DNA of 64,000 nucleotides from a virus. Position 1 is the first letter of the stretch; every line of letters starts with the position of its first letter. A program made the translations under genes and the position numbers. The stretch lies in the IMG/VR virus record IMGVR_UViG_3300043788_000114, positions 32,001 through 96,000 of that record, one strand, 5' to 3'. This document shows positions 29,230-44,538 of the stretch, in pieces. The notes below the pieces were generated by a model. That model was not told the origin of the DNA, did not search any database, and worked only from the letters and a program-made list of their open reading frames with translations.

Positions 29230-29230
29230 C

Positions 29231-29414: not shown

Positions 29415-29419
29415 GATGT

Positions 29420-30710: not shown

Positions 30711-30759
30711 TCTTCGATCCAGAATTCGGATGGTGGAGGAGTTGGATCAGTATCGATCT

Positions 30760-31225: not shown

Positions 31226-31232
31226 AAATTCT

Positions 31233-31388
31233 ATGCCCGAGAATCGGAGAAAAAAGCAGCGGAGAAGGAAAGTCCTGCGACAAATCGAGCGGCGCAGGCA
31301 GTTCCAGCGAGTCAATGAAATCCTGTTGCGCTCCGCTTTCGGGGTAGAATGGAAAAAGTACCGCCAGCGTGGAATCGCGGTGCCGTAA
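31233..31388 (+). CDS. Small Arg-rich protein (not in ORF track)
   Basis: MPENRRKKQRRRKVLRQIERRRQFQRVNEILLRSAFGVEWKKYRQRGIAVP. Confidence 0.4.
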   Translation: MPENRRKKQRRRKVLRQIERRRQFQRVNEILLRSAFGVEWKKYRQRGIAVP

Positions 31389-31393
31389 GTTTC

Positions 31394-31469
31394 GGGGTCG
31401 TAGCTTAATTGGAAAAGCGCTTCCTTGTCACGGAAGAAGTCGAGGGTTCAACTCCCTTCGATCCCGCCA
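31394..31469 (+). tRNA. tRNA-Asp(GTC)
   Basis: Loop TTGTCAC, G73 CCA. Confidence 0.9.
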
Positions 31470-31660
31470 AGTTTGGAGATGACATGTCCAAGAGATGGAG
31501 AAAGCGCCAAGCGAGGATGGCAGCGACAGCCGCCGCGCAGCCTGCTGTTACGGAGCAACCTGCGGCGCAACAGACAGCACCTCCGCCCGCTGCCCAGCCT
31601 GAACGCGTACAGAAGATTCCTACGTGGCCATGGCGTGCGGTAGGGTAGAGAAAAGTTTTC

Positions 31661-31735
31661 GTCCCTGTCTGCTAGAGGCGAGGCATCCGCGTTCTCATCG
31701 CGGCAACATCGGTTCGAATCCGATCAGGGACGCCA
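31661..31735 (+). tRNA. tRNA-Glu(CTC)
   Basis: Loop TTCTCAT, CCA. Confidence 0.9.
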
Positions 31736-31739
31736 AGTT

Positions 31740-31834
31740 GCGCGGCGGCGAGACAGCCGTCAGTATTTGCGTCGAGTACATCTGAGCTACCCGCTATGGA
31801 GGTAGACGCAAGTCGATCATCTGACTAGCCGCGC
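31740..31834 (+). ncRNA. Unidentified structured RNA between tRNA-Glu genes
   Basis: Nested helices GCGCGGC/GCCGCGC, GTCAG/CTGAC, TTGCGTC/GACGCAA, CTACC/GGTAG. Confidence 0.5.
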
Positions 31835-31843
31835 TTCGTTTAT

Positions 31844-31917
31844 GGGGTCGTCTTCTAACGGTAGGAAAGCTGATTTTCGCTCAGCTAATGCCGGTTCAAC
31901 TCCGGTCGGCCCTTCCA
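31844..31917 (+). tRNA. tRNA-Glu(TTC)
   Basis: Loop TTTTCGC, CCA. Confidence 0.85.
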
Positions 31918-31938
31918 ATTTTCATCCCGGAGGAACCC

Positions 31939-32178
31939 ATGCACAGCGTCTATGTGGAATACGATGGCGGCATCAACGCCGCGACCGATGAGGCAATCTA
32001 CGCTGCGGTAGGTTATGTGTTCGACGGCCAAATAAAGTGCGACTCGGGTTGCATGATTGGCGGTACGCAAACTCGCGATCTGGTCTTCCGATTTGAGGAT
32101 GGCGAGCAAGCCGCCAAGGCCGCAAGGAAACTGCGGGAACTGTCGGATGTGAGAGTCAACACGGCGATGGTGGCATAG
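31939..32178 (+). CDS. Hypothetical protein
   Basis: GGAGG SD before ATG 31939. Confidence 0.6.
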   Translation: MHSVYVEYDGGINAATDEAIYAAVGYVFDGQIKCDSGCMIGGTQTRDLVFRFEDGEQAAKAARKLRELSDVRVNTAMVA

Positions 32179-32280
32179 AGTTGCGCGGGCCGAGGGATGC
32201 TGCATACTGAGGAGCGAAGGTATGCAGCCCGAGAGGTTTGCAGACTCCCTGCTCTTTTTGACGGCCCGCTGCAAAACGTA

Positions 32281-32310
32281 AGGCCCACAGATGTTCTTGT
32301 GGGCCTTTTC
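32281..32310 (+). terminator. Intrinsic terminator between convergent units
   Basis: AGGCCCACAG-loop-TTGTGGGCCT then TTT. Confidence 0.7.
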
Positions 32311-32346
32311 GTTGAGCAACCTCTCGCAAGGTGAGTTGATTTTACC

Positions 32347-33141
32347 TTACTTCCAGCGCCTACCGCTGGATGGCTTCTTCGGAGAGTGTGGCCGTGCTGG
32401 TACCGGAGGCACAGGAACACTTGGAATCGCCCTCACTGTGGCTGGACCGGTGAACACCCCGACGCCAACAGGATCATCATCCGTCTCAGTCTTCATTCCA
32501 ACCGAACAACGCATCATCGGTGTGGTGTTGTCGTGCAGGAACGATTCGGACTGTGATGCGGAAGATCGTGCCATGTTTGCCGACGCAAACGCCATCGTCG
32601 CATAGGTCGCACGGGCGTTCTGGGCGTTGTAATTCGCCGACGCTCCGACTCCTACTCCCAACGAACTGGCCTCGTTCCACGTTTCCGGTTGCGTGCCAAG
32701 ATAGGTAAACGTCCAGTTGCCACGCTTGATCCGGTCGTCGATTGCCGCGTGAAGCGCCGTCTTTGAATATTCCTTGCTGGAGTTTTCCTCCCCATCCGTC
32801 ACGATCACGACGATAGCCTTGTCGAATGTGATGCTCTTGTCGTCATCGAGTGCTTGGAGAGTTTTTCCAACCGCATCATAGAGCGCGGTTGCTCCGCGCG
32901 GGCCGTATTTGGCAAGTTCGTCGCCGTCTATCTTGGCGATTGGAACCCCGAGGTACGGCGCATCTATTTGCGTGTCAAACGTGGTGAGCGAGAACAGATA
33001 CTCAACCTCGTTGTCCTTCTGTTGATCGGCCTGCATGTCCTTGACATAGGTCTTGAATCCGCTCAAGGTTTCCTGCCAAACGTTGGCCATGCTGCCGCTA
33101 CGATCCTGAATGAAACTGATTAGGACCTTCTTCATCTCCAT
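32347..33141 (-). CDS. von Willebrand factor A domain protein
   Basis: DRSGSM MIDAS, G.TALYDAVG, IVTDGEENSS. Confidence 0.85.
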   Translation of the reverse strand: MEMKKVLISFIQDRSGSMANVWQETLSGFKTYVKDMQADQQKDNEVEYLFSLTTFDTQIDAPYLGVPIAKIDGDELAKYGPRGATALYDAVGKTLQALDDDKSITFDKAIVVIVTDGEENSSKEYSKTALHAAIDDRIKRGNWTFTYLGTQPETWNEASSLGVGVGASANYNAQNARATYATMAFASANMARSSASQSESFLHDNTTPMMRCSVGMKTETDDDPVGVGVFTGPATVRAIPSVPVPPVPARPHSPKKPSSGRRWK

Positions 33142-33362
33142 CTCCTTTTTCTGACGTAGATTGTGTGGGGCTTGAGATCGAGATGCGCAACCAAGTCCTT
33201 AGATGGAGGCCGCACGCCGTTGTATACCTGAGAAAGGTAGGAAGCAGAGACGCCAAGCGAACTCGCGTACTCTCGAAGACTGCGTTCGCCTTGGTCCTGC
33301 TTCAATTCACCAACGACCTGATCGGTTTCCAGTGTTTCGTCCATCTCTTCCTTGCGCCACAT
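33132..33362 (-). CDS. Cro/CI-type HTH regulator, paralog of 27684..27896
   Basis: QGERSLREYASSLGVSASYLSQVYNG. Confidence 0.8.
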   Translation of the reverse strand: MWRKEEMDETLETDQVVGELKQDQGERSLREYASSLGVSASYLSQVYNGVRPPSKDLVAHLDLKPHTIYVRKRRWR

Positions 33363-33370
33363 GAGAGCTA

Positions 33371-33389
33371 GTTAAGCATTGTGCTTAAC
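33371..33389. promoter_or_regulatory. Palindromic operator between divergent promoters
   Basis: GTTAAGCA-TTG-TGCTTAAC inside the minus-strand TTGACA promoter of the HTH gene. Confidence 0.6.
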
Positions 33390-33445
33390 GATTGTCAAGA
33401 GAGAAAATCATTGACACCCTCCCTACGCGGCGCTACTCTTCTGGC

Positions 33446-33667
33446 ATGGCAGACTCCGCCGCGCAGCCGATTATCGATCTTGCCAACTCTTGGATGAACA
33501 AGGCCAAGAACATTGAGGACAAAATTGTCGGCACCCCCGGCAGGATCAAAACCAGCACATCGCCCAAGCCTCCCGCAACCACGTGGCACGATGACCGGTA
33601 CAAAACGACCGATCAAAAGGCGGCACCCCGCAAGGCCGCTCCCCGGAAGAGAACGTCGAGCAAGTAG
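33446..33667 (+). CDS. Small basic-tailed protein, probably leaderless
   Basis: TTGACA-17-TACTCT 6 nt before ATG; ends KAAPRKAAPRKRTSSK. Confidence 0.6.
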   Translation: MADSAAQPIIDLANSWMNKAKNIEDKIVGTPGRIKTSTSPKPPATTWHDDRYKTTDQKAAPRKAAPRKRTSSK

Positions 33668-33669
33668 GC

Positions 33670-33897
33670 ATGGCGCTTGAGACGGAACTCGCCTTCTTCG
33701 ACTCCCACCGCACCGAGTGGACAGAGCATCACAACGCCAAGTTTGCCGTCATTCAGGGCAAAAAGCTGCTCGGGTTCTTCGACGAGTGGGAAGATGGATT
33801 CAAGGCTGGGATCAAAGCCTTCGGCGGCAGACGCGAATTCCTCGTGAAGCAAGTGTGGATCGTCGAGCCGGTTTATGTTATCGGGGCGGTTGCCTGA
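33670..33897 (+). CDS. DUF5678-like small protein
   Basis: LETELAFF...KFAVIQG...FLVKQV pattern. Confidence 0.5.
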   Translation: MALETELAFFDSHRTEWTEHHNAKFAVIQGKKLLGFFDEWEDGFKAGIKAFGGRREFLVKQVWIVEPVYVIGAVA

Positions 33898-33974
33898 AAA
33901 AATAGGCAACAATTACCTTGACTTACCCAATACCTGTGCTATTCTTGGGTTAGCTTAAGTAAAGGATTGCCGAT

Positions 33975-34931
33975 ATGTTTGAGCCTAAAACACTTGCCGA
34001 AGCTATTCGCTACTACAGCGATGAGCAGACGTGTATCGACGTGGTTGCAGGTCTCCGCTGGCCAGATGGCAAGCCGGTATGCCCGAAGTGCTGGACGGCT
34101 GAGGGCGAGCGCAAGCACTACTGGCTCAAGACCCAAAAGCGGTGGAAGTGCTATGCCTGCCGCAAGCAATTCTCGGTCAAGGTGAACTCGATTTTCGAGG
34201 ATTCGGCCCTCAAACTGTCGGATTGGCTTATTGGCCTCTGGATGCTTGTGAACTGCAAGAACGGCGTGAGTAGCTATGAGCTATCGCGGGCCACGGGGAT
34301 CGCTCAGAAGTCAGCGTGGTTCGTTCTACAGCGCCTTCGTTACATCCTCAAGGCAGTTGACCATCGGCCCTTGGGAACGCCGGGGCCGGTCGAGGTAGAC
34401 GAATGCTATCTCGGCCCCGACGCACGCACGATGCACGCGGACAGGCGAGCCAAGTTGCAACTGGCGACAAACGGCTACGCGAAGAAAACGGCTGTGATCG
34501 GTCTGCTCGATCGCAACACGCGGCAGGTCCGAGCTGAGGTCTTACCGGAAGTCACACGCGATGTGCTGCAAGCGCGGATTCTCAAGCATTGCGGCAAGGG
34601 AACGACCGTGTACACCGATAGCCACGCCGGATACGACAACATGGATTCGCAGCGTTTCGTCCACGAAACCGTGAATCACATGATGGAGCATGTACGCGGC
34701 GATGTTTCGACGCAAGCGATTGAGAATTTCTGGTCGTGCCTCAAGAGAACACTGACCGGGACGTACATCGCGGTCGAGCCTTATCACTTGGACCTGTACC
34801 TGAATGAGCAGGTCTACCGCTTCAACAATCGCGTGAATAAAGACGATGGTCAGCGTTTCAGAAAGGCACTGAGCATGATCGGGGATCGCAGACTGACTTG
34901 GAACCGGCTTACCGGGAAGGAGGGGGCCTGA
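33975..34931 (+). CDS. IS1595 (ISXO2-like) transposase
   Basis: RWP...CPKC...CYACRKQFSV Zn ribbon; VEVDECY, VYTD, VNH, IENFWS.LKR, YLNE..YRFN. Confidence 0.95.
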   Translation: MFEPKTLAEAIRYYSDEQTCIDVVAGLRWPDGKPVCPKCWTAEGERKHYWLKTQKRWKCYACRKQFSVKVNSIFEDSALKLSDWLIGLWMLVNCKNGVSSYELSRATGIAQKSAWFVLQRLRYILKAVDHRPLGTPGPVEVDECYLGPDARTMHADRRAKLQLATNGYAKKTAVIGLLDRNTRQVRAEVLPEVTRDVLQARILKHCGKGTTVYTDSHAGYDNMDSQRFVHETVNHMMEHVRGDVSTQAIENFWSCLKRTLTGTYIAVEPYHLDLYLNEQVYRFNNRVNKDDGQRFRKALSMIGDRRLTWNRLTGKEGA

Positions 34932-34933
34932 TT

Positions 34934-35116
34934 TCAGGAGGGCTTTGCGGGGACGTAACGGAATCTCTTACGAGATGAAAATTTCTCGGCCTTGGCTCTC
35001 TCGCGTGTCTCCTGAATATCCTTCGGCGAAGCTGAGAGGACGCCAGTCAAAACCTTAGTGAAGGTGCCGCTCGGCGGCCTGTCTAATTTATCGGGATTGT
35101 TCGGAGGAGTTTTCAT
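34934..35116 (-). CDS. Small IS passenger protein
   Basis: Coupled to upstream passenger ORF. Confidence 0.4.
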   Translation of the reverse strand: MKTPPNNPDKLDRPPSGTFTKVLTGVLSASPKDIQETRERAKAEKFSSRKRFRYVPAKPS

Positions 35117-35397
35117 TTCGCTGCCGGTCTCGCGATCACGGCATGGAGCGTCACTTCGTCATCGGTAAAAGAATAGAGCACGGTCAAATCCGGCTTATGC
35201 CACGCATGATCCCCGCTTTGCGAATACACCCAAAACCGTCCCTTGAAGTGAGTGCCTTTCTCTGGCTTATGCGCTAGCGTCCATTCCAGCGAACGGTAGG
35301 CCATCTCCCCGCGCGCAAATTCTCTTGTCGCACGGTCCATATCGACAGAAAATTCTCTGTCTTGGACCACCTGTCGCAATTTAGGATTCGTTTCCAA
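35113..35397 (-). CDS. Putative RelE/ParE-like toxin
   Basis: 94 aa, L...PEKG...LTVLYSFTDDEVTLHAV, directly downstream of Panacea-like gene. Confidence 0.5.
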   Translation of the reverse strand: METNPKLRQVVQDREFSVDMDRATREFARGEMAYRSLEWTLAHKPEKGTHFKGRFWVYSQSGDHAWHKPDLTVLYSFTDDEVTLHAVIARPAAK

Positions 35398-35917
35398 AGC
35401 GCGAACTTATCACAGAATCGGCCCACGCGCGATCTTCATCTGTGATAGCTCGTGGTGTTGCCATGATAGCAAAGAGAGGAATTGTTTCACCCATTTCAGC
35501 TAGTTTCCACCACTCAGCGTGGGTCGCATCGCTGATAGATGCGGCTGTGTGAGAGCATACCGTGTCAGTCATTTTGTTAATAAACTCCAGATCGTCAGAA
35601 GTGAACAGACTTAGATCTGGCTCTGTTTTAGTTATGTATTCCGTCCGGAAGTAATTGACCACCCTTACGGTTCGAATTTCCAGCGCCCCCTCTTCCACTA
35701 ATTCCTCTAGGAGTGGGAGCATCGCGGCCACAACAGGACCATTCTTTTCCTTAATAAAGCGCGCGCCTGTCAACGCGTGCCCGTTCGTCTTCACGTAGTG
35801 ATTTGTCTCGACGTACCAAATCACCTTGTTAAGTTTCACTGCCCCCAGACGCGCAGGATTCTCCCGGCAACGTGAACACACGTAGTGCACGAGTCTTTTC
35901 AGTTTTGTCCTGTTCAT
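35381..35917 (-). CDS. Panacea/SocA (DUF4065) antitoxin-like protein
   Basis: VKLNKVIWY...LTGARF....GPV...ISDATH...W. Confidence 0.8.
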   Translation of the reverse strand: MNRTKLKRLVHYVCSRCRENPARLGAVKLNKVIWYVETNHYVKTNGHALTGARFIKEKNGPVVAAMLPLLEELVEEGALEIRTVRVVNYFRTEYITKTEPDLSLFTSDDLEFINKMTDTVCSHTAASISDATHAEWWKLAEMGETIPLFAIMATPRAITDEDRAWADSVISSRFGNES

Positions 35918-36220
35918 CTCTTTGCCGCCCTTCCGCGTCCTAGCGAACGTGGCTCCATAAAGGGGGTTTCCCAAGTTGTGCCACGTTTGCTGGACGTGAC
36001 TACAACACGTTTTGCTTGCAGGTCAATTTAGCAGCAGATTTCCACACTTGCACGCAAAAATCAGCTAGCTGCTAATTTGACGCGTCGAGTGGGGAAATAG
36101 CTTCGCCGTTCGTTCGCCCACATGGTTCGCTTTTGGGCCGGGGAAACCTGTCCTCAATTCGACTCCTCTTTTATAATACCCTTTTAAGGGGGATTTCAAG
36201 GGTTATTTCAAGGGGGGTTT

Positions 36221-36493
36221 ATGGGGGATGAACCAGAGAATAAAGGAGGGCGACCGGGAGCCGGGCCTCGTTACCCGGTAGAGATTAGAACCATGGACGC
36301 TGTCACGTCCCGAATGCTAGACACACTTGTTACGTACGGTCGGTTCGGTGACTCAAGATCACAGGTGGCTCTTTTCATCATTCGAAAGTGGCTGTTTGAG
36401 AACGAGGACCGTTTACAGAAAGCAATCGCGGCTAGGAAATTTCCCCTCGGAGACATCGATTCCGACTTTGAACCGCCGACAAATCAGAGTTAG
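36221..36493 (+). CDS. Small putative DNA-binding IS passenger protein
   Basis: GGRPG...LVTYGRFGDSRSQVALFIIRKWL, RHH-like. Confidence 0.5.
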   Translation: MGDEPENKGGRPGAGPRYPVEIRTMDAVTSRMLDTLVTYGRFGDSRSQVALFIIRKWLFENEDRLQKAIAARKFPLGDIDSDFEPPTNQS

Positions 36494-36557
36494 GAGACGG
36501 CCCATGAGCACCGGAGGCTCTGGGTTAGTCACAGTATTTATTGCCAAAAAATACGGC

Positions 36558-36586
36558 TTGACATTCTGCGCCGCCCGATGTACCGT
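36558..36586 (+). promoter_or_regulatory. Sigma70-like promoter of tRNA array 2
   Basis: TTGACA-17 nt-TACCGT, 7 nt before leader GTG. Confidence 0.75.
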
Positions 36587-36593
36587 CAAAAAC

Positions 36594-36680
36594 GTGATGA
36601 CTCGATTCCATAGCGACTTCCCAGCAACAGCGGCCACGCAGCCGCAAGGTAATCGCTCGCCTGAAATGGGGTCTCAATAG
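36594..36680 (+). CDS. Attenuator leader peptide 2 (MMTRFHSDFPATAATQPQGNRSPEMGSQ)
   Basis: Contains codons read by all 12 tRNAs of array 2. Confidence 0.8.
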   Translation: MMTRFHSDFPATAATQPQGNRSPEMGSQ

Positions 36681-36713
36681 GATTTTTCATCGCAATGGAG
36701 CGAAGAAAACTAC

Positions 36714-36755
36714 GAGGCCCCGGACACCGAAAGGTTTTCGGGGCTTCTGCTTTGT
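36714..36755 (+). terminator. Attenuator terminator 2
   Basis: GAGGCCCCGGA...TTCGGGGCTTC then TGCTTTGT (interrupted U tract). Confidence 0.7.
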
Positions 36756-36808
36756 GCGGATGAATAAAGGCGATAGCTTGAGTGGTATTTTGATGTTAAA
36801 CTCTGTGC

Positions 36809-37420
36809 ATGGCTGCAATCGATATGGCTGTGTATATGGCAGAGCGCCGGAAGAATCGGCGCGATAAACTGATTGCGATGTCGGGCGGGAGATGCATCAA
36901 GTGTAATTCAACCGACGATCTCAATTTTGACCACAAAGACCCGAAGGATCGCTCATTCCGATTGACTGGTAAGGCGCTGGATGGTTCGTGGGAAAAGATT
37001 CTTAAAGAGTGGCGAAAATGCCAGTTGCTTTGTAGGGTTTGTCACCTTCGGAAGACAAAAGAAAATGACGAGTACGGCGAACCGCCGAACAAGGGCGTTT
37101 CGAAATGGGGAGAAGTTCTTCCTGAGCACGGATGTGAAGCGGCTTACGCGCATGGTTGCAGATGCGATGAATGCTGTAAAGCGAGATACGAAGCGCGAGT
37201 TCGTCGCGGCGAATTGAAAGGTATCCGTGGACCACGAGGAGCAAATAATCCGAAGGGCGTCATCAAACACGGAACGCGCTCCGGATACCAAGCGGAGTTG
37301 AGACAAGGTTTAACTGCTTGCGATGAATGCAGAAAAGCGAACGCGGAAGAGACGCGGCGGCGCAAGCAAAATGAAAAGTTTGTTCCGAGGGAACCAGACG
37401 GTACGGTAGCGCACTGTTAA
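36809..37420 (+). CDS. HNH endonuclease
   Basis: GGRCIKC...LNFDHKDP...KCQLLCRVCH; HG...Y..GC.C..C repeats; overlaps tRNA-Asn. Confidence 0.85.
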   Translation: MAAIDMAVYMAERRKNRRDKLIAMSGGRCIKCNSTDDLNFDHKDPKDRSFRLTGKALDGSWEKILKEWRKCQLLCRVCHLRKTKENDEYGEPPNKGVSKWGEVLPEHGCEAAYAHGCRCDECCKARYEARVRRGELKGIRGPRGANNPKGVIKHGTRSGYQAELRQGLTACDECRKANAEETRRRKQNEKFVPREPDGTVAHC

Positions 37421-37458
37421 TGCGACAATAACAGGTTCGACTCCTGTCCTCGGAGCCA
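37384..37458 (+). tRNA. tRNA-Asn(GTT)
   Basis: Loop CTGTTAA, G73 CCA. Confidence 0.9.
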
Positions 37459-37467
37459 GTTTGAAGT

Positions 37468-37543
37468 TGGGGAGAAGTTCAACGGGTGGAACGCTCGGCT
37501 CTGACCCGAGAGGCAGCAAGTTCGAGACTTGCCTCCCCAGCCA
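37468..37543 (+). tRNA. tRNA-Gln(CTG)
   Basis: Loop CTCTGAC, CCA. Confidence 0.9.
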
Positions 37544-37728
37544 AGTTTGGAGGACCACATGAAGGATTATCGCGAAACGAAAAGGAACTACGCACGACGG
37601 ATGCGACCTCTCTGAAAGCAAGTTGGCCGGTGCATCTGTTGCGGCGCACGACCGGCTGAGCAAGATCGAGCGAAGTGTACGGTGTGTCTTTGAGCGCCAG
37701 AGACTTTATGCGAAGACACGAAAGAAAT

Positions 37729-37801
37729 AGGGGAATGGCCGAGCGGCTTAGGCGAGTGTCTTTGAAGCACTTTCAGGTGGGTTCAACTCCTACTTCCCCT
37801 G
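37729..37801 (+). tRNA. tRNA-Gln(TTG), CCA not encoded
   Basis: Loop CTTTGAA. Confidence 0.85.
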
Positions 37802-37802
37802 C

Positions 37803-37878
37803 GCGGGCGTAGTTCAATTGGCAGAACGTCGGAGTGCCACTCCGAAGGTTGCCGGATCGTTGCCGGTCGCCCGCTCCA
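37803..37878 (+). tRNA. tRNA-Gly(GCC)
   Basis: Loop GTGCCAC, U73 CCA. Confidence 0.85.
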
Positions 37879-37969
37879 ATTTGAAAGGGTAGTTGCAATG
37901 GAACACAGGATGATTTTGATGAGCCCGGACTTGAAGGAAGTCCACAGAGTTGTAGTTGTAAGACGCAAG

Positions 37970-38044
37970 GCACCATTAGCTCAACAGGCAGAGCACGGGA
38001 TTCGTACCCCCGAGACTGGCGTTCAAGTCGTCAATGGTGCTCCA
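37970..38044 (+). tRNA. tRNA-Thr(CGT)
   Basis: Loop TTCGTAC, CCA. Confidence 0.85.
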
Positions 38045-38094
38045 CAAGATAGCGAGCCGTCAGAATAGCGACGATTCGTTATGTAAGGCCGCGA

Positions 38095-38171
38095 GGTATG
38101 GTACGGCCCGGTGATGTGAGCCGCGGCGGGGCATGGCAAGGCTTGGTATGGTCAGGTAGGGTGTGGCATGG
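38095..38171 (+). repeat. GGNNN pentanucleotide-periodic tract
   Basis: GG at exact 5-nt spacing in 14 of 16 units. Confidence 0.8.
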
Positions 38172-38716
38172 GCAGTTTAATGCGTAGATCGGTGCTTCAG
38201 TTGAACGCTTCACTAGAAGCGATTCGCATTATTTCTGCAAAGAGGGCTTTGACTTTGTTGACTAAGGGCAAGGCCCTCACTGAGGTTTCGACGGGGATTG
38301 AGATTTATCCCGGCGTGTTCTTGCCTAGCGTGATTAGGCTTCGGCACTACGCGAGGGTTCCGCATAAGAGGCCGATTCCTTCGAGGAAGAATATCTTTGT
38401 CCGCGATGGGAACCGTTGTCTTTACTGTGGGGCCAAGGGACCGAAGGTTACTCTTGAACTTGAGCATGTTATCCCGAGGTCAAGAGGAGGACAAGGGTCG
38501 TGGGACAACTTGGTTTCGGCGTGCCACGAGTGTAACCAGAAGAAGGGTGATCGTACACCACAGGAAGCTGGAATGACTCTGATTCATCGTCCTTTGCCAG
38601 CGACGGTACACACAAACCGTTTCGTGCTTAAGCAACTTGGGGAAGAAATTTCTGAGTGGAGTCCATTTTTGTGGCAGGACAACAAGGGCGACACTCGCTT
38701 TCAGTTTGTGCATTAG
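38168..38716 (+). CDS. HNH endonuclease (McrA-like)
   Basis: VLQLNAS...PSVIRL...RKNIFVRDGNRCLYCG...EHVIPRSRGG..SWDNLVSACHECNQKKG. Confidence 0.9.
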   Translation: MGSLMRRSVLQLNASLEAIRIISAKRALTLLTKGKALTEVSTGIEIYPGVFLPSVIRLRHYARVPHKRPIPSRKNIFVRDGNRCLYCGAKGPKVTLELEHVIPRSRGGQGSWDNLVSACHECNQKKGDRTPQEAGMTLIHRPLPATVHTNRFVLKQLGEEISEWSPFLWQDNKGDTRFQFVH

Positions 38717-38737
38717 GATGGTGATCCTAAGTTTTGA

Positions 38738-38812
38738 GCCTCGCAAGCATTGCCGTCGATGCGCCGGTCCTGTAAATCGGTGAAGCCAGTTAGACTCTGG
38801 CGCGGGGCTCCA
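38738..38812 (+). tRNA. tRNA-Thr(TGT), C33
   Basis: Loop CCTGTAA, CCA. Confidence 0.8.
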
Positions 38813-38822
38813 TAACTTTCAT

Positions 38823-38898
38823 GGAGCGATTGGCCGAGAGGTAAGGCACCAGATTGTGGCTCTGGTATACGTGGTTTCGAGTACCACATCGCTCCCCA
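38823..38898 (+). tRNA. tRNA-His(GTG)
   Basis: Loop TTGTGGC, G-1:C73, CCA. Confidence 0.9.
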
Positions 38899-38906
38899 AT
38901 TTTTAC

Positions 38907-38987
38907 GGGCCGTGGAACTGCATGGGGTGGTTGCCTCTCTTGCAAAGAGGAAATGTCAGGCGAGTTCGATTCTCGCACGGTCCACCA
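38907..38987 (+). tRNA. tRNA-Ala(TGC)
   Basis: Anticodon TGC, G3:U70, CCA. Confidence 0.85.
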
Positions 38988-38993
38988 ATTATT

Positions 38994-39239
38994 ATGAAGC
39001 GACCGAAGTGTACGAAAGTCGATTTCATTGTCTGCGGTCGCATCGACGATCCGAGGACGAACAATGCTCCCGGATCGGAACTCAGGAAGTGCTCTGAGTG
39101 TGAAAGTGAAGTGAGGATTCATCCGACAACTATCGACGCGAAGATCAATGTACCGATCCTGTGTTTGCAGTGCGCACTGGCCAAGATGGAGTGTTCGGAA
39201 GAGGAGATGGAAGAGCAGGGAACAAGATTGCAGGTTTGA
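38994..39239 (+). CDS. Small Cys-rich protein between tRNAs
   Basis: CSEC...CLQC. Confidence 0.5.
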   Translation: MKRPKCTKVDFIVCGRIDDPRTNNAPGSELRKCSECESEVRIHPTTIDAKINVPILCLQCALAKMECSEEEMEEQGTRLQV

Positions 39240-39246
39240 AGATTTC

Positions 39247-39321
39247 GGACTCGTAGCTCCAATGTAGAGCGGCACGTTGAAGCCGTGCGCGTTGCTGGTT
39301 CAAGTCCAGTCGAGTCCACCA
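39247..39321 (+). tRNA. tRNA-Phe(GAA)
   Basis: Loop TTGAAGC, CCA. Confidence 0.9.
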
Positions 39322-39329
39322 AGTTTTAA

Positions 39330-39403
39330 CAGGGCGGAGCGCGGTCTGGCAGCGCACCAGTTTCGGGAACTGGCGGTCGGAGGTTCAAATCCTCTCGCCC
39401 TGA
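39330..39403 (+). tRNA. tRNA-Pro(CGG), CCA not encoded
   Basis: Loop TTCGGGA. Confidence 0.85.
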
Positions 39404-39478
39404 CGGGGATTAGCTCAGAGGCAGAGCATTCGCTTTGGGAGCGAAGGGCCGGGATTTCGAAATTCCCATCCCCGACCA
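39404..39478 (+). tRNA. tRNA-Pro(TGG)
   Basis: Loop TTTGGGA, CCA. Confidence 0.9.
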
Positions 39479-39490
39479 TTTTGAAGATGT

Positions 39491-39566
39491 GGGCTGTTAG
39501 TTCAACTGAAGAGAATATCGGTCTACGAAACCGAAGATGGAGGTTTGAGCCCTCCACGGCCTACCA
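39491..39566 (+). tRNA. tRNA-Arg(ACG)
   Basis: Loop CTACGAA, CCA. Confidence 0.9.
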
Positions 39567-39587
39567 AAAATAAACTGCGCTTTTCTA

Positions 39588-39616
39588 TTGACGCGGTTTG
39601 GGAATAGCGATAACGT
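39588..39616 (+). promoter_or_regulatory. Promoter of Y-RNA/Ro60 unit
   Basis: TTGACG-17 nt-TAACGT. Confidence 0.7.
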
Positions 39617-39620
39617 TGAT

Positions 39621-40158
39621 TTTGTCGATGGTGAAGTTTACGGATACTTCTCTTCCAAAGAAAACCTCTGTGAGCGTTTGTTCCTCGACAAAGATTTGCG
39701 GTTGGTGTAGTTTCAGTTACTTCTTAATCAGCAGGTCACGGGTTCGAGTCCCGTCAAGCAGCAATGCTTGTAGCTCAGTTGGTAGAGCAGCCGAGGCGAA
39801 AGCCAGTACCCTGAAGCGCCTGTTCCGCCGCAATAAAGTTCTCCGGTAGTGAAGAGGACGGTTACTTCACTCGAAATGAAAAACAACCGTTTTCGCTTGT
39901 TCTCCGGGGATTAAGTATGAGCCGTAGTGGTCGTAAGGGTTACTTCTTGGTTCGATTCCAAGGTTGGAAGCAATTCCTACCTGCCGATTGGTCGGCTACC
40001 CCTTGCAAATGTTCTCGGCTCTCTAAGTTCGGGTTGGTGTAGGAAACAGTTACTTCGCCTGTGGAGCGAGTAGTTCGGGTTCGAATCCCGGCGTCTTCTT
40101 CGGAAGATGTAGTGTAATGGCAGCACGCTTACGTCACTGTTCCGTCTGTTCCGCCCGA
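39621..40158 (+). ncRNA. Five tandem Y-RNA-like (YrlA-like) RNAs: 39621-39692, 39696-39833, 39840-39910, 39919-40021, 40029-40158
   Basis: Each has paired ends and shared TRGTG, GWTACTTC and TGTTC motifs; units 2 and 5 (4 partly) hold T-arm, capped acceptor-like stem, D-arm; adjacent to Ro60 gene. Confidence 0.75.
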
Positions 40159-40168
40159 TACTACTCAG

Positions 40169-40203
40169 AGAGCCTCTGCTTCGGCAGGGGCTTTTCTATT
40201 TTT
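40169..40203 (+). terminator. Intrinsic terminator between Y RNAs and Ro60 gene
   Basis: AGCCTCTGC-TTCG-GCAGGGGCT then TTTCTATTTTT. Confidence 0.85.
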
Positions 40204-40220
40204 CACCGGGAGGGTGAACG

Positions 40221-41645
40221 ATGCGTACAAACGTAGCAGAAAAGAAGGCGCTCATCTACACGCACGAGGGCGCAGTGGCGGTGTTCATCAACCCCGTCGA
40301 TCAGCTTCGCCGCTCTGTCATGGCGAACATGTTATGGGAGGACGAGTTCTACGAGGATGGCCAGTCCATTGCAAAGCGGATTCAGGAAACGACCGCCGAA
40401 ATCCTCAAGCAGAAGAACGGCGCGCAGACCGTGGCGGACATTGCGTTTGAGGCCCGCACGAAGATGAAGCTGCGTCACGTCCCGTTGCTTCTATTGGTTT
40501 CGCTCATCCGTGCGAAGACCGATCAGACACGGAAGGTTGTGGCGGAAGCCATCGCGCGTGTGGTCCAGCGGCCAGACGAGATGGGTGAATTGATCTCGCT
40601 CTACTGGAAGCTGAATGACAAGCGTGCCATGTTGCCGCACCAGATGAAGATCGGCCTCGCGGCGGCGTTCCAGAAGTTCGATGCCTACTCGCTCGGAAAG
40701 TGGAACTCGGATGCGGCGGCGGTGAAGCTGCGCGACGTCCTGTTCTTGACGCACGCGAAGCCGAAGGATCAGGCACAGGCAGAACTCTGGAAGAAGTTAG
40801 CGGAGAAGACGCTGGAGTCGCCGGATACGTGGGAGGTGGCTCTCAGCGGCGGTGCTGACAAGAAGGAGGCGTTCACTCGTCTGCTCGCCGAGGAAAAGCT
40901 GGGTGCGCTGGCGCTGCTCCGAAATCTGCGGAATATGCAGCAGGCCGGTGTCGACGTTGAGGCGATCCGCAAGGGTCTCGGAACGATGAAGACAGAGCGT
41001 GTTCTTCCCTTCCGCTTCATCACGGCGGCAAAGTACGCTCCGCAGTTGGAGCCTCAGCTTGAGCAGGCCATGTTCCGGTGCCTCGCAAGTCAGGAGAAGT
41101 TGACGGGCAAGACAGTCTTGATCGTCGATTGCTCGGGATCGATGCATGGCGGAATCTCTGCCAAATCCGAACTGGACCGTCTCAGCGCGGCTGCTGCATT
41201 GGCTATGCTGGTGCGTGAGGTCTGCGAGGATGTTGCCGTGTACGCGACGGCGGGTGACGATGGTCGGCGCATCCACGCGACGATGCTGGTTCCTCCGCGT
41301 CGTGGTTTCGGTTTGCGTGATCTGCTTTCCTACGAGAGCACGAGCCGCAAGATCGGCGGAGGTGGAATCTTCTTGAAGCAGGTGATTGAGTACGTCCGCA
41401 AGGAAGAGAAGGACACGGCGGACAGGATCATCGTCATCACCGACGAACAGGACTGCGATCTGGTAAACAAGCCAGCAAGCGCCAAGCCATTCGGGAAGAA
41501 CAACTACCTTATCAACGTGGCTAGCTTCAAGAACGGCATCGGCTACGGAGAGTGGGTCCACATCGACGGCTGGAGTGAGGCGATCTTGGATTACATCCAG
41601 CAGTACGAGCGGTTGCAGGAAACCGGCAATGAGATTTCTGCCTAA
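40221..41645 (+). CDS. rsr: Ro60/TROVE domain ribonucleoprotein (Rsr-like)
   Basis: THEGA, EFYEDG, LRHVPL, DAYSLGKW, LRDVLFLTHAKP, TWEVALS, ALLRNLRNM, LPFRF, vWA DCSGSM and ITDEQ. Confidence 0.9.
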   Translation: MRTNVAEKKALIYTHEGAVAVFINPVDQLRRSVMANMLWEDEFYEDGQSIAKRIQETTAEILKQKNGAQTVADIAFEARTKMKLRHVPLLLLVSLIRAKTDQTRKVVAEAIARVVQRPDEMGELISLYWKLNDKRAMLPHQMKIGLAAAFQKFDAYSLGKWNSDAAAVKLRDVLFLTHAKPKDQAQAELWKKLAEKTLESPDTWEVALSGGADKKEAFTRLLAEEKLGALALLRNLRNMQQAGVDVEAIRKGLGTMKTERVLPFRFITAAKYAPQLEPQLEQAMFRCLASQEKLTGKTVLIVDCSGSMHGGISAKSELDRLSAAAALAMLVREVCEDVAVYATAGDDGRRIHATMLVPPRRGFGLRDLLSYESTSRKIGGGGIFLKQVIEYVRKEEKDTADRIIVITDEQDCDLVNKPASAKPFGKNNYLINVASFKNGIGYGEWVHIDGWSEAILDYIQQYERLQETGNEISA

Positions 41646-41665
41646 TTTCCCTTGGTACCATTTGC

Positions 41666-41917
41666 CTAAAGGGCACGGCTCAACACCGTGCCCTTTCTTT
41701 TTGCCTTCTCCAGTCGCTTGCGCGCCGCGTCGTTGCGGATCGCCAAGTTGAGCCCGCTGGTGTAGCTGAGCACGAAGGAGCCACGAGTTCCTTTGAGCCG
41801 GAAGATCATGTATCCCGGCTTGAGTTCCACGATGATCTGCCGCTGGCGTCGCCGGTCGTAGACGGTGTTCTCCGTCTCGACGATGAGTTTGGATTTACGC
41901 TGCGATAGCTTGCTCAT
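41666..41917 (-). CDS. Small basic hypothetical protein
   Basis: GAGGTG SD; FRLKGTR motif. Confidence 0.55.
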   Translation of the reverse strand: MSKLSQRKSKLIVETENTVYDRRRQRQIIVELKPGYMIFRLKGTRGSFVLSYTSGLNLAIRNDAARKRLEKAKRKGTVLSRAL

Positions 41918-42461
41918 CTGACACCTCCACTATTGCGATCTTCTTTGCGTAGTACCTGACCTTCGTTTCCCACTTCTTCCGGAGCGTGGTGGCACGCTTC
42001 TCGCGCGTGAGCGCCGCCTTGAGCATCCGCTGGCAGTGAGCCAGCTTGGCGTCCGGTGCAGGGCGAGTGGTCGTTACCTTCGGCCTTACCTCCAGCGGTA
42101 GCTCATTGGCCCACGCGTAGATTTGCCGGTAGCTGCCGAAGCGTCCGTACCTTGCCGAGTGACGCATCATGTACTCATCGCGCGCTCCACGCGTGTGAGC
42201 AAGTTCGTGCGCGATCACCATTGCGAAGTCCACCTTATCTGGCGTGCGCTTGGAGAGCCGCACCTTCATCCAGTTCCCTCTAATGCTGGCTTCGCCACTA
42301 GAGTACGTGCTGCCGTTTCTCCGGGTGTATACAACCTTCACATGTAGGGATGGCGCTCCGCGCTTGCATAGATCAGGACGTTCCTCCGGCATCTGCCGAG
42401 AGATGAATGCCCGGATATGATCATCGCGCCAGTGAGTTTTGTTGCTGAGTTTGATTCGCAT
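41895..42461 (-). CDS. Putative zincin-like metalloprotein
   Basis: VIAHELAHTRG (HExxH). Confidence 0.55.
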   Translation of the reverse strand: MRIKLSNKTHWRDDHIRAFISRQMPEERPDLCKRGAPSLHVKVVYTRRNGSTYSSGEASIRGNWMKVRLSKRTPDKVDFAMVIAHELAHTRGARDEYMMRHSARYGRFGSYRQIYAWANELPLEVRPKVTTTRPAPDAKLAHCQRMLKAALTREKRATTLRKKWETKVRYYAKKIAIVEVSDEQAIAA

Positions 42462-42611
42462 AGCCGTGTTTCCCCCTGCATCTATTTTCTCATCGACGAT
42501 TTTTGTAAACTGCGAAATCGCCTGTATTCATGCGGTCTCCGACGTGTAAGTAATTGACAGTACAGTGTCGAAATAAATCTCTTGACAAGAATTTCCCATT
42601 TTGCGGTTAGA

Positions 42612-42971
42612 ATGTTCTGGGGGAGAAAATTGCTCATCATTCTGGCGCTTGTATGGATTCACTTTGTGTCGGATTTTCTGTTGCAGTCCGACAAGATGGC
42701 GATCAATAAATCGAAGAGTTGGAAGTGGCTCGGCATCCATTGCGTAACGTACTCGACGCCGTTCCTGATCTTCGGCTGGCGCTTCGCGCTGGTCACCCTT
42801 GCTTTCCATTTCGTGACGGATGCGATCACGTCGCGTGGCACAGCGTACCTGTGGAAGCGGGAGATGCGACACTGGTTCTTCTCGCTCATCGGCTTCGATC
42901 AGGCGATCCACCTGAGCACGCTGATTTTGACCTACCATTTTTTGCTTGCAAAGAATCTGGAATGGGTGTAG
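42612..42971 (+). CDS. DUF3307 family membrane protein
   Basis: HFVSDFLLQSDKMAINKS...HC..Y...HFVTD...GFDQAIH. Confidence 0.8.
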   Translation: MFWGRKLLIILALVWIHFVSDFLLQSDKMAINKSKSWKWLGIHCVTYSTPFLIFGWRFALVTLAFHFVTDAITSRGTAYLWKREMRHWFFSLIGFDQAIHLSTLILTYHFLLAKNLEWV

Positions 42972-42974
42972 GCT
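42946..42974 (+). promoter_or_regulatory. Sigma70-like promoter of tRNA array 3
   Basis: TTGCAA-17 nt-TAGGCT, 7 nt before leader GTG. Confidence 0.7.
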
Positions 42975-42981
42975 GATTTTC

Positions 42982-43068
42982 GTGCAGATAAGGACCAAAT
43001 CCGTGAACACGAGAATGACCGGGAAGCGGGTCATTTGGGGAATCGTGTCCGGGGGTTTGGGAACCTAA
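42982..43068 (+). CDS. Attenuator leader peptide 3 (MQIRTKSVNTRMTGKRVIWGIVSGGLGT)
   Basis: Contains codons read by all 12 tRNAs of array 3, including ATA, AGG, AGA, CGG, TGG. Confidence 0.8.
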   Translation: MQIRTKSVNTRMTGKRVIWGIVSGGLGT

Positions 43069-43096
43069 TCTGCAACAAGATTCGGAACTCAAAGCA

Positions 43097-43122
43097 CCCC
43101 GGCTCAGGCCGGGGATTTTTTT
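43097..43122 (+). terminator. Attenuator terminator 3
   Basis: CCCCGGC-TCAG-GCCGGGG then ATTTTTTT. Confidence 0.9.
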
Positions 43123-43135
43123 GGTCTTTGAAAAA

Positions 43136-43210
43136 GCGGGTTTAAGCTAGTTGGCAAACTGCCTGCCTCCAAATCAGGACTCAGGGGTTCGATTCCTCTA
43201 ACCCGCGCCA
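43136..43210 (+). tRNA. tRNA-Trp(CCA)
   Basis: Loop CTCCAAA, G73 CCA. Confidence 0.9.
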
Positions 43211-43211
43211 T

Positions 43212-43287
43212 CGCGACGTAGCTCAGGTGGTGGAGCGCCGATCTCATAAGTCGGAGGGCGAGGCTTCGAGTGCCTCCGTCGCGACCA
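43212..43287 (+). tRNA. tRNA-Met(CAT) (elongator Met or Ile2)
   Basis: Loop CTCATAA, CCA. Confidence 0.85.
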
Positions 43288-43293
43288 AGTTTT

Positions 43294-43388
43294 GCCGGAA
43301 TCCTCGGGCGAGGCGCTGGGATTTATAACCCCGGTTGTTGTCGGTAGATTGCCGATGTGCGAGGGATCATACCCCTCTTCCGGCCCCA
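43294..43388 (+). tRNA. Atypical tRNA with TAT anticodon (nominally Ile), long variable arm
   Basis: GCCGGAA/TTCCGGC acceptor, loop TTTATAA, V arm TCGGTA-GAT-TGCCGA, C73 CCA. Confidence 0.7.
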
Positions 43389-43390
43389 GT

Positions 43391-43467
43391 GAGCGCGTCG
43401 TATAGCGGCTGATTATACCTGCCTCTTAAGCAGGCTGACGCTGGTTCAAATCCAGCCGCGCTCACCA
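43391..43467 (+). tRNA. tRNA-Lys(CTT)
   Basis: Loop CTCTTAA, CCA. Confidence 0.9.
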
Positions 43468-43474
43468 AAGTTTT

Positions 43475-43560
43475 GGGATCGTACTCGAATTGGATGCAGA
43501 GACCTGACTTTTAATCAGCGGGGAAACCCAATGGGGGTTCGAGTCCCCCCGGTCCCACCA
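43475..43560 (+). tRNA. tRNA-Lys(TTT) with extra variable stem
   Basis: Loop CTTTTAA, GGG-GAAA-CCC insert, CCA. Confidence 0.85.
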
Positions 43561-43564
43561 AGTT

Positions 43565-43641
43565 GCTCCCGTATCGGCGCTGTCTTCTAAACAGCAGGCC
43601 GTAGACGGATGACGCGGGTTCGACTCCTGCCGGGAGCGCCA
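43565..43641 (+). tRNA. tRNA-Arg(TCT), no canonical D-arm
   Basis: Acceptor, anticodon (CTTCTAA) and T arms intact; only 7 nt between acceptor and anticodon stems. Confidence 0.75.
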
Positions 43642-43647
43642 TGTTTT

Positions 43648-43725
43648 GCCGCTGTACCTCACCCGCCTCCTAAGCGGGATTCGAGTAACTGGATGATGCC
43701 GGTTCAACTCCGGCCAGCGGCACCA
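43648..43725 (+). tRNA. tRNA-Arg(CCT), no canonical D-arm
   Basis: Loop CTCCTAA; same architecture. Confidence 0.75.
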
Positions 43726-43730
43726 GTTTT

Positions 43731-43807
43731 GCTGCCGTACCGGGTCGCCCTCCGAAGGCGAATACCGTAGATGGAGAAGGCAGGTTCGAGTCCTGTCGGC
43801 AGCGCCA
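43731..43807 (+). tRNA. tRNA-Arg(CCG), no canonical D-arm
   Basis: Loop CTCCGAA; same architecture. Confidence 0.75.
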
Positions 43808-43811
43808 GTTT

Positions 43812-43889
43812 GCAGGGTTAACTCAGTCCGCTCAGAGTGCCTCTCCTACAAAGAGGAAGCCGCAGGTTGAAATCCTGCACCCTGCACCA
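43812..43889 (+). tRNA. tRNA-Val(TAC), C33
   Basis: Loop CCTACAA, CCA. Confidence 0.85.
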
Positions 43890-43894
43890 AGTTT

Positions 43895-43969
43895 GCCGGT
43901 CAAGCACATGCGGATGTGTACTCCCTTGGTAAGGGAGAGGCAGAGAGTTCGATCCTCTCGACCGGCCCA
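43895..43969 (+). tRNA. tRNA-Thr(GGT)
   Basis: Loop TTGGTAA; 3' end one nt short of NCCA. Confidence 0.85.
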
Positions 43970-43973
43970 GTTT

Positions 43974-44048
43974 GCCGATGTAGCTCAATGGGAGAGCATT
44001 CCCTTGATAAGGGAAAGGTCAGTGGATCGGTACCACTCATCGGCACCA
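43974..44048 (+). tRNA. tRNA-Ile(GAT)
   Basis: Loop TTGATAA, CCA. Confidence 0.9.
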
Positions 44049-44065
44049 AGTGTAGAATTGCAGGC

Positions 44066-44392
44066 ATGGCTCAATGGGAAGTGACTATACGCGCAAACAT
44101 TCTCATCACAGACGATGATGATGACGAAAACCAGTTTGCTGAGCAGTACACTTTCATCTGGTCCGCGCCCGACTTCATTTCGGCAGTGATGTCAGTCCAG
44201 CAGAAGCTCGACACTTTGAACGAGCGCACGAAGAAGAAGTGGGAAGAGACTGCTCGCAAAGCACGATTCATGGAAGAATACAACATCGTCGGGTTGATCG
44301 AAACCGATCACGTGCTATTCGGCGACAAGTGGATAGATGAGTTCGTAGAACGAGGCGTAATAGATCGCAATTATGCCGAAGATGAAAGTTGA
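44066..44392 (+). CDS. Acidic hypothetical protein
   Basis: ATG after tRNA-Ile and TAGAAT; ORF ends at tRNA-Gly. Confidence 0.55.
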   Translation: MAQWEVTIRANILITDDDDDENQFAEQYTFIWSAPDFISAVMSVQQKLDTLNERTKKKWEETARKARFMEEYNIVGLIETDHVLFGDKWIDEFVERGVIDRNYAEDES

Positions 44393-44467
44393 GCGGGTGT
44401 CGTCCAACGGTAGGGCCACAGCCTTCCAAGCTGTTGACGAGGAGTTCGAATCTCCCCACCCGCTCCA
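44393..44467 (+). tRNA. tRNA-Gly(TCC)
   Basis: Loop CTTCCAA, U73 CCA. Confidence 0.9.
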
Positions 44468-44538
44468 TCACTCTCCGGAATAAAATCTGGAATAATTTGT
44501 GCTCGGAATTTCGATTTCTCCCGTGCTAAACTGCGCTC

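Follow-up and report, generated by a model that had tools for sequence, protein, structure and literature searches.

Multivalent leader-peptide attenuators of enterobacteria include those of ilvGMEDA (Ile, Leu and Val codons) and thr (Thr and Ile codons), alongside the trpL, hisL, leuL and pheL leaders. The pheST attenuator of Escherichia coli, with its pheM leader, regulates a synthetase in response to a single amino acid, and the T-box binds uncharged transfer RNA (tRNA) directly by a specifier codon, without an open reading frame (ORF). The tRNA genes themselves are usually described as being under promoter control, with growth rate or the stringent response as the signal or, in the case of Anabaena, with a repressor. 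The subject of this analysis is attenuator 2, a candidate regulatory element ahead of twelve tRNA genes (array 2) in a 64,000-nucleotide (nt) stretch of DNA from an uncultured soil phage, here called the window, which comprises bases 32001-96000 of the IMG/VR virus record IMGVR_UViG_3300043788_000114 and provides the coordinates used throughout. The source record is 138.5 kb, linear and estimated to be complete, the GC content is 54%, and the tRNA genes of the window number about 37 and form three main arrays, accompanied by a permuted transfer-messenger RNA (tmRNA). It is quite likely that array 2 is gated by a multivalent, ribosome-mediated leader-peptide transcription attenuator that would release transcription of the tRNAs upon a shortage of any one cognate aminoacyl-tRNA, such that the phage probably makes the tRNAs of array 2 only when ribosomes read the corresponding codons slowly.

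The locus resembles the enterobacterial attenuators in its short codon-rich leader ORF, its alternative 1:2, 2:3 and 3:4 pairings and its intrinsic terminator-like hairpin before the genes, and it resembles the multivalent ones in the proposed sensing of more than one amino acid through ribosome stalling. However, the enterobacterial attenuators act on biosynthetic enzymes and use runs of codons for one to three amino acids, whereas the phage leader stands before tRNA genes and samples nine amino acids and 12 isoacceptors once or twice each, matches its targets at the anticodon level, probably lies on a leaderless mRNA, and is one of three parallel phage-encoded cassettes that partition the tRNA set. 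As in pheST/pheM, a leader-peptide attenuator would act on a component of translation by sensing the decoding of its own codons, although the pheST system is cellular and governs a synthetase for one amino acid. As in T-box riboswitches, tRNA status would choose between terminator and antiterminator ahead of translation-related genes, but the phage leader carries an ORF and the T-box has none. The supernumerary tRNAs of the L-array (trn operon) of Anabaena sp. PCC 7120 are silent by default and induced by impaired translation, under promoter control that involves the repressor TrcR and direct repeats covering the -10 box and transcription start site (PMC8421152, PMC10272220). Both systems would thus be inducible supernumerary tRNA arrays, with control at the promoter in Anabaena and at an attenuator, as proposed here, in the phage. 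In the available portions of their text, PMC8421152 contains no word beginning with "attenuat", nor "leader" or "terminator", and PMC10272220 likewise contains none beginning with "attenuat", nor "leader peptide" or "terminator". A full-text literature search found no published description of leader-peptide attenuation of tRNA genes. The mechanism itself would be that of a classical leader-peptide attenuator, and the novelty would lie in the tRNA targets, the twelve isoacceptors, the anticodon-level matching, the probably leaderless start and the three cassettes.

Leader 2 and the codons of array 2

Leader 2 follows a sigma-70-like promoter (Table 1) that was not listed by a consensus scan because its -10 hexamer is weak. 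Since the ORF starts 7 nt from that hexamer, the mRNA is probably leaderless. The frame reads GTG (from 36594) ATG ACT CGA TTC CAT AGC GAC TTC CCA GCA ACA GCG GCC ACG CAG CCG CAA GGT AAT CGC TCG CCT GAA ATG GGG TCT CAA TAG (to 36680), and it is the sole ORF of at least 12 codons that ends 10-45 nt ahead of the hairpin at 36714-47. Array 2 serves nine amino acids (Asn, Gln twice, Gly, Thr twice, His, Ala, Phe, Pro twice and Arg). Under strict wobble rules (G34 pairing with C/U, C34 with G, U34 with A/G and A34 with U/C/A), leader 2 holds cognate codons for 12 of the 12 array 2 tRNAs, in agreement with an earlier sequence-only reading of the locus, and 16 of its 27 codons are cognate. All 13 codons named in that reading were found in the leader frame, where the run ACG CAG CCG CAA GGT AAT CGC (36636-36656) does comprise seven codons for seven different array 2 tRNAs. 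A stretch of 13 consecutive residues is drawn entirely from the nine amino acids of the array.

The codon match was compared with that of all genome ORFs of 18-35 codons, taking every start on both strands (n = 2797). Coverage of 12/12 was seen in 5 of these 2797 ORFs, two of which are leader 2 itself via nested starts. Hence 3 of the 2795 other short ORFs reach full coverage and none of the 2795 combines it with a run of at least 13, so the match withstands the comparison with chance.

The same construction is seen ahead of the other two main arrays. Leader 1 (28492-28560; peptide LCLSSLSSYSSLLS / VKTLCLSSLSSYSSLLSGSGGS, ending at its stop codon) precedes Leu(TAA, TAG, CAA), Cys, Ser(GCT, GGA, CGA, TGA) and Tyr tRNAs, within an attenuator (28457-28624) composed of a TTGACA promoter, a GTG start at 28492, and a terminator at 28590-28611 with a clear U-tract, after which tRNA-Leu begins at 28625. 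Leader 3 (43003-43068; peptide VNTRMTGKRVIWGIVSGGLGT, likewise to its stop) precedes Trp, Met, Lys (two), Val, Thr(GGT), Ile and Gly(TCC) tRNAs, and its attenuator (42990-43135) has an AAGGA Shine-Dalgarno sequence, a GTG start at 43003, and a terminator at 43097-43114 with a T7 tract, followed by tRNA-Trp from 43136. When the tRNAs covered by each leader were tabulated for each array in a 3 x 3 matrix, the diagonal values were 9/9, 12/12 and 8/8, and the off-diagonal values were 1-4.

Homologous leaders and the content of their arrays

Relatives of the locus were sought in viral and metagenome collections using the TROVE/Ro60-like gene at 40221-41645 as an anchor, and homologs of leader 2 were then located by nhmmer followed by inspection and position in the loci labelled L005, L006, L004 and L031. 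A promoter-proximal short ORF is kept in 5/5 homologous loci. In the homologs, an ATG lies 6-7 nt past a TTGACA-17/18-TAnnnT promoter, the ORF runs for 23-31 codons, and the hairpin follows 24-33 nt further on; TTGACA is invariant in the leader-2 alignment and is present in L004 too. The homologous peptides (MMTTRHFAATPTANQPQGRNCATGEGSQTDL; MRTRATHRGFTPTAQPQGNCVLAWTQ; MMTRAHFATNPTAQPTFAQGTAV; MTNRASNTFTHPAAQPQGNT...) retain their composition while the order of residues is shuffled, and their first 18-20 residues are almost all from the set N, Q, G, T, H, A, F, P and R. Similarity at the DNA level stops at the promoter, with none further upstream.

The extent of this conservation bears on whether the frame belongs to an ordinary small gene that begins upstream, at ATG 36504, encodes a 58-amino-acid (aa) protein, ends at its own terminator and matches the array by coincidence. 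Although the frame is open from 36327, an AGGAG Shine-Dalgarno sequence stands 7 nt ahead of ATG 36504, and the gene-caller product is recorded in a protein library, such a gene is extremely improbable. Its upstream 31 codons are unconserved (similarity to L005 starts within the leader), the ORF in L004, L006 and L031 starts at the leader start codon, the invariant TTGACA promoter would fall inside the supposed gene, and coincidence fails to account for three diagonal leaders or for the covariation described below. Among 1.84 billion representatives the 58-aa product matched itself and two unrelated repeat proteins, and homologs across the whole ORF, as expected of a conserved phage protein, were not found in L004, L005, L006, L031 or the databases. 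Matches of the 58-aa ORF to two viral contigs (L002 and L003) were rejected as spurious, since both contigs are AT-rich DNA of giant viruses and carry no tRNAs. Translation begun at 36504 on read-through transcripts would also pass through the sensing codons and is therefore compatible with attenuation.

A second alternative is a structured 5' leader without coding function (e.g., a processing signal or a protein or tRNA binding site) in which the ORF is incidental. The hairpins are indeed conserved, and translation of the ORF is a prediction; however, the start, stop and frame are retained in 5/5 homologs despite indels, in-frame codon content is conserved where residue order is not, matching to the own array as opposed to other arrays appears only in the leader frame, and Rfam searches gave no T-box or other cis-regulatory family at the locus. 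A non-coding leader is thus very improbable. Over 28000-45000, the Rfam search gave no T-box riboswitch match above the gathering threshold, nor any when the limit was relaxed to E<=1.

The attenuator reading is supported further by counts pooled over 15 leaders from seven genomes, with the last six sense codons of each leader omitted: 167 of 259 sensing codons match the leader's own array, versus 37 of 376 for other arrays of the same genome. For amino acids with isoacceptors divided among arrays (Gly, Thr, Arg and Ser), tRNAs of the own array alone read 26 codons and those of another array alone read 9, while 3 codons are read by both and 3 by neither, which indicates that the match reaches the anticodon level, imperfectly. 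The chosen ORF (at least 12 codons, ending 10-45 nt ahead of the hairpin) is the only candidate in 9 and one of two in 4 of 13 leaders; the frame is therefore fixed by its position before the hairpin and not by its composition. Outside the pooled counts are the more distant L041, L071, L017, L066, L037 and L038 and the large arrays of L012, as well as L035, which is near-identical to L034. In L006, leader 1 (no hairpin by the criteria) and leader 3 (hairpin mis-called) enter the pooled codon count and stand outside the structure counts.

Leaders also change with the content of their arrays. The rearranged counterpart of array 2 in L034 contains Glu, Gln (two), Asp, Trp, Gly (two), Cys, Thr (three), His, Ala, Phe and Pro tRNAs, of which Asp, Glu, Trp and Cys are newcomers. 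Its leader (MMRKPHTDYCPTPATFMWQGAGEGTFM, to the stop codon) has acquired the corresponding residues D, E, W and C, with cognate codons for 14 of the 15 tRNAs. The Asn tRNA of L034 has shifted to the Met/Val/Ile/Lys/Arg array, where the leader (MTIRTKSMMRRRINRARPSGMVCP, to the stop) contains N and lacks W. In the distant relative L012, Cys is missing both from the tRNAs of the Leu/Tyr/Ser array and from the leader ahead of it (MRILSSSLLLSSLSYLSRDRGGGA, to the stop). In L006, where the Asp and Glu tRNAs adjoin array 1, leader 1 includes both D and E; the window copy of leader 1 has neither residue, and there these tRNAs lie behind their own promoter (30331-59, 11/12 match). Leader 3 is kept in L004, L005 and L006. 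Also in the array 3 region are three unusual Arg genes; within the window ARAGORN makes no tRNA call there (43564-43807), and Rfam gives only a weak tRNA-Sec-like match at 43564-43638. The syntenic site in L004, L005 and L006 carries Arg(TCT), Arg(CCT) and Arg(CCG), and AGA and CGG codons are present in leader 3.

Alternative pairings at the terminator hairpin

The hairpin proposed as terminator 2 sits 33 nt past the leader stop codon, and a hairpin lies 19-33 nt past the stop codon in all 13 leaders scored; the stem in L005 carries compensatory changes. The complementarity that the sequence-only reading had noted between GGGGTCTC near the end of the ORF and GAGGCCCC at 36714-36721 is borne out, with 8 bp including one G-U. 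In the minimum free energy (MFE) structure of the free leader 2 RNA, 36595-610 pairs with 36661-76 (1:2) and the hairpin at 36714-47 forms (3:4), and both pairings recur in the four homologs. When the nascent RNA is cut before the 3' arm, the terminator 5' arm is paired in the MFE with the G-rich segment at the end of the ORF in 13/13 leaders. In leader 2 this places 36668-75 against 36714-21 around the middle hairpin 36684-709, the whole structure having a predicted energy of -28.1 versus -23.9 kcal/mol for the terminator alone.

The pairing of the ORF end with the terminator arm is specific to each genome. The mean duplex energy is -13.4 kcal/mol within genomes and -10.4 kcal/mol across genomes, a value as good being reached in 1/20000 permutations, and upstream parts of the leader pair far more weakly with the arm (-2.7 to -10.8). 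Despite differing terminators, segment 2 tracks its own arm (GGCUAGGG with CCCUGGCC in L004; GGCUUGGA with UCCAAGCC in L006). Because segment 2 ends 3 nt ahead of the stop codon, a terminating ribosome would mask it, and a stall at any codon up to CGC (36654-56) would expose its core. Cognate codons are concentrated accordingly along the ORF, with 131 of 197 in the productive stall zone versus 47 of 109 beyond it (Fisher p = 1e-4). The parts of the attenuator reading that can be examined in the sequence (the ORF, the own-array codons, the hairpin, the covarying antiterminator and the protector) are all borne out.

Several observations weigh against this reading of the locus. The U-tract of leader 2 is interrupted (TGCTTTGTG after a stem ending in CTTC), the hairpin at 36714-47 was not listed as a terminator by the consensus scan, the terminator tails of L005 and L031 are weak, and the full-length MFE of leader 2 retains the terminator with a modelled stalled ribosome, so that the switch would need to be kinetic. 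The trp leader switch is likewise kinetic. These same features (the weak U-tracts in the window, L005 and L031 and the persisting terminator), together with a conserved middle hairpin that has no assigned role, would suit a leader that is translated and matched to its array but whose output is Rho access, RNase processing or precursor stability, or a response of reversed polarity. An output of this kind is unlikely, however, given that L004, L006, L034 and leaders 1 and 3 carry canonical hairpins with clear U-tracts at the same position, that changes in the 5' arm are mirrored in the segment with which it pairs, and that the MFE of leaders 1 and 3 flips from terminator to antiterminator with a modelled stalled ribosome.

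Other such points concern the leader itself and its distribution. Under strict wobble, 11 of the 27 leader 2 codons are non-cognate, and AGC, TCG, GAC, GAA, ATG, GGG and ACT are read by tRNAs of other arrays. With one or two codons per tRNA and no runs, sensitivity to a mild shortage may be low. The GTG/ATG start of leader 2 has no Shine-Dalgarno sequence, and leaderless initiation is an assumption. The search for RNA runs containing 36400-38100 listed none, and no close relative in culture was found; the best cultured terminase match (large terminase, genome G000:C1:1766-3958) has 27% identity, to phages of Tunturiibacter (Acidobacteriota), and gives a weak hint that the host phylum is Acidobacteriota. 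Start positions within the frame and array limits were picked by the analyst. Exceptions at the isoacceptor level amount to 9 of 35 informative codons, among them codon 2 or 3 in three leaders, within an N-terminal part whose M-x-T-R/L opening is common to many leaders. No recognisable leader was seen in the distant relatives L041, L071 and L017 or in most arrays of L012, and L066, L037 and L038 have no convincing leader. In the window copy, a 612-nt HNH-like gene parts attenuator 2 from array 2, and the consensus scan lists a promoter-like site at 37039-66 (9/12 match) within that gene; array 2 may therefore be transcribed from an independent promoter in the HNH insert in this copy. In L071 (11330-11660) and L041 (2320-2650), array 1 directly follows the TROVE gene, with repeated Y-RNA-like modules ahead of it and no leader ORF.

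The proposed switch

The anatomy, codon match, conservation and covariation of the locus together suggest that leader 2 is translated, that the hairpin terminates transcription, and that the response to slow decoding is release. Transcription would begin at the TTGACA/TACCGT promoter, with the RNA 5' end at or beside the start codon, and a ribosome would translate the 28-codon leader as RNA polymerase advances, codons 4-21 sampling every tRNA species of array 2. If a cognate aminoacyl-tRNA were scarce, the ribosome would stall in the sensing zone and leave segment 2 (GGGGUCUC, 36668-75) free to pair with GAGGCCCC (36714-21) in a long hairpin that encloses the middle stem; this antiterminator would block the terminator, and polymerase would continue via the HNH gene into the 12 tRNA genes. 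With smooth decoding, the ribosome at UAG 36678-80 would mask segment 2, the hairpin would form and transcription would end. In the event that no ribosome loads, segment 1 (36595-610) would sequester segment 2 and the terminator would form too. The predicted outcome is an OR-gate feedback on tRNA supply, and arrays 1 and 3 would be governed in the same manner by their own leaders.

A more tentative possibility is that the three leaders together constitute a phage monitor of the decoding capacity of the cell at isoacceptor resolution, in which the loss of tRNAs to host anticodon nucleases or phage host shut-off would switch on only the array that holds the replacements, with leaders and arrays co-evolving. 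Phage tRNA arrays would then be sorted by isotype because each array is one sensing unit. If attenuation of array 2 is correct, it represents a direct feedback loop on tRNA supply, takes a textbook mechanism to targets of a new class, and helps to explain the terminators immediately ahead of tRNA arrays, the isotype sorting of tRNA genes into arrays in large phages, and the means by which a phage could respond on demand to tRNA-targeting host defences. The purpose and timing of phage tRNAs would become directly testable with reporters, and the leaders would offer natural, compact, codon-specific sensors for synthetic biology.

Array layout and neighbouring features

Array 2 (37384-39566) is broken up by an HNH gene and small ORFs (Table 1). 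ARAGORN with default settings called 10 of its 12 tRNAs, and the other two, Asn(GTT) and Thr(TGT), are syntenic with ARAGORN calls in relatives. The HNH-like ORF between attenuator 2 and the array shares 37 nt with tRNA-Asn and is missing from the corresponding place in L005, L006 and L031. In these three loci the first tRNA (Asn) begins 20-23 nt past the hairpin, which identifies the HNH-like gene of the window as an insertion and leaves no room for a separate array promoter; over all leaders scored, the first tRNA lies 3-41 nt past the hairpin in 11 of 13, again leaving no such room. Three HNH-type endonuclease ORFs (29562-30404, 36809-37420 and 38168-38716) are scattered among the tRNA arrays of the window. 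The positions of HNH ORFs vary among relatives, as expected of mobile insertions. Searches in viral contigs found no relatives of the HNH-like ORF at 36809-37420 or of an upstream 90-aa ORF, megablast of the region against cultured phages found none either, and no 20-mers are common to the array 2 region of the window and L004, L005 or L006.

Table 1. Features of attenuator 2 and array 2 in the window, with the evidence for each call
Feature	Position	Strand	Evidence or remark
In-frame upstream extension (58-aa product if used); AGGAG at 36492-96	36504..36593	+	not conserved
Sigma-70-like promoter: -35 TTGACA (36558-63), 17-nt spacer, -10 TACCGT (36581-86)	36558..36586	+	sequence; relatives
Leader 2 ORF, 28 codons, peptide VMTRFHSDFPATAATQPQGNRSPEMGSQ to stop	36594..36680	+	begins 7 nt past -10 hexamer
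Segment 1 (putative protector), partner of segment 2 in ribosome-free RNA	36595..36610	+	free-RNA MFE
Proposed sensing zone, codons CGA to CGC (codons 4-21), cognate to all 12 array 2 tRNAs	36603..36656	+	
Segment 2, GGGGTCTC (also GGGGUCUC), putative antiterminator 5' strand	36668..36675	+	duplex -17.5 kcal/mol, ranking first among 13 arms
Conserved middle hairpin, inside putative antiterminator helix	36684..36709	+	MFE, alignment
Putative terminator hairpin, segments 3 and 4, -23.9 kcal/mol; 5' arm begins GAGGCCCC; followed by TGCTTTGTG	36714..36747	+	
HNH-like endonuclease ORF, between attenuator 2 and first tRNA	36809..37420	+	Pfam HNH E 0.0046, below curated cut-off
tRNA-Asn(GTT)	37384..37455	+	Rfam 46.3 bits; anticodon loop CTGTTAA read from sequence
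tRNA-Gln(CTG)	37468..37543	+	ARAGORN default
tRNA-Gln(TTG)	37729..37802	+	ARAGORN default
tRNA-Gly(GCC)	37803..37878	+	ARAGORN default
tRNA-Thr(CGT)	37970..38044	+	ARAGORN default
HNH endonuclease gene within array 2	38168..38716	+	HNH_5, E 5.8e-17
tRNA-Thr(TGT)	38738..38812	+	ARAGORN -ps90 only; synteny: Thr(tgt) beside His in L005, L006, L031
tRNA-His(GTG)	38824..38898	+	ARAGORN default
tRNA-Ala(TGC)	38907..38987	+	ARAGORN default
tRNA-Phe(GAA)	39247..39321	+	ARAGORN default
tRNA-Pro(CGG)	39330..39404	+	ARAGORN default
tRNA-Pro(TGG)	39404..39478	+	ARAGORN default
tRNA-Arg(ACG)	39491..39566	+	ARAGORN default

A further sub-array, without a leader ORF, is present at 30331-31917. Its near-consensus promoter (TTGACA-17-GATAAT, 11/12) lies 6 nt ahead of an odd tRNA (30365-30442), which is followed by the permuted two-piece tmRNA (Rfam RF04321, 75 bits) and then by one Asp and two Glu tRNAs. 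Downstream of array 2, from 39731 onward, the TROVE gene is closely preceded by a tRNA-like element (40032-40101) and by a YrlA-like Y RNA, for which the Rfam score of 46.5 bits falls short of the gathering value. The TROVE/Ro60-like protein encoded there has a vWA domain and is conserved in many contigs of soil phages and bacteria, at 40-89% identity. A TROVE homolog is also present in Caulobacter phage CcrPW, with no annotated tRNA array within 15 kb on either side. The region between arrays 1 and 2 contains, on the + strand, an IS1595/ISXO2-like transposase (33975-34931) and, on the - strand, an ORF that resembles SocA/Panacea antitoxins (35381-35974).

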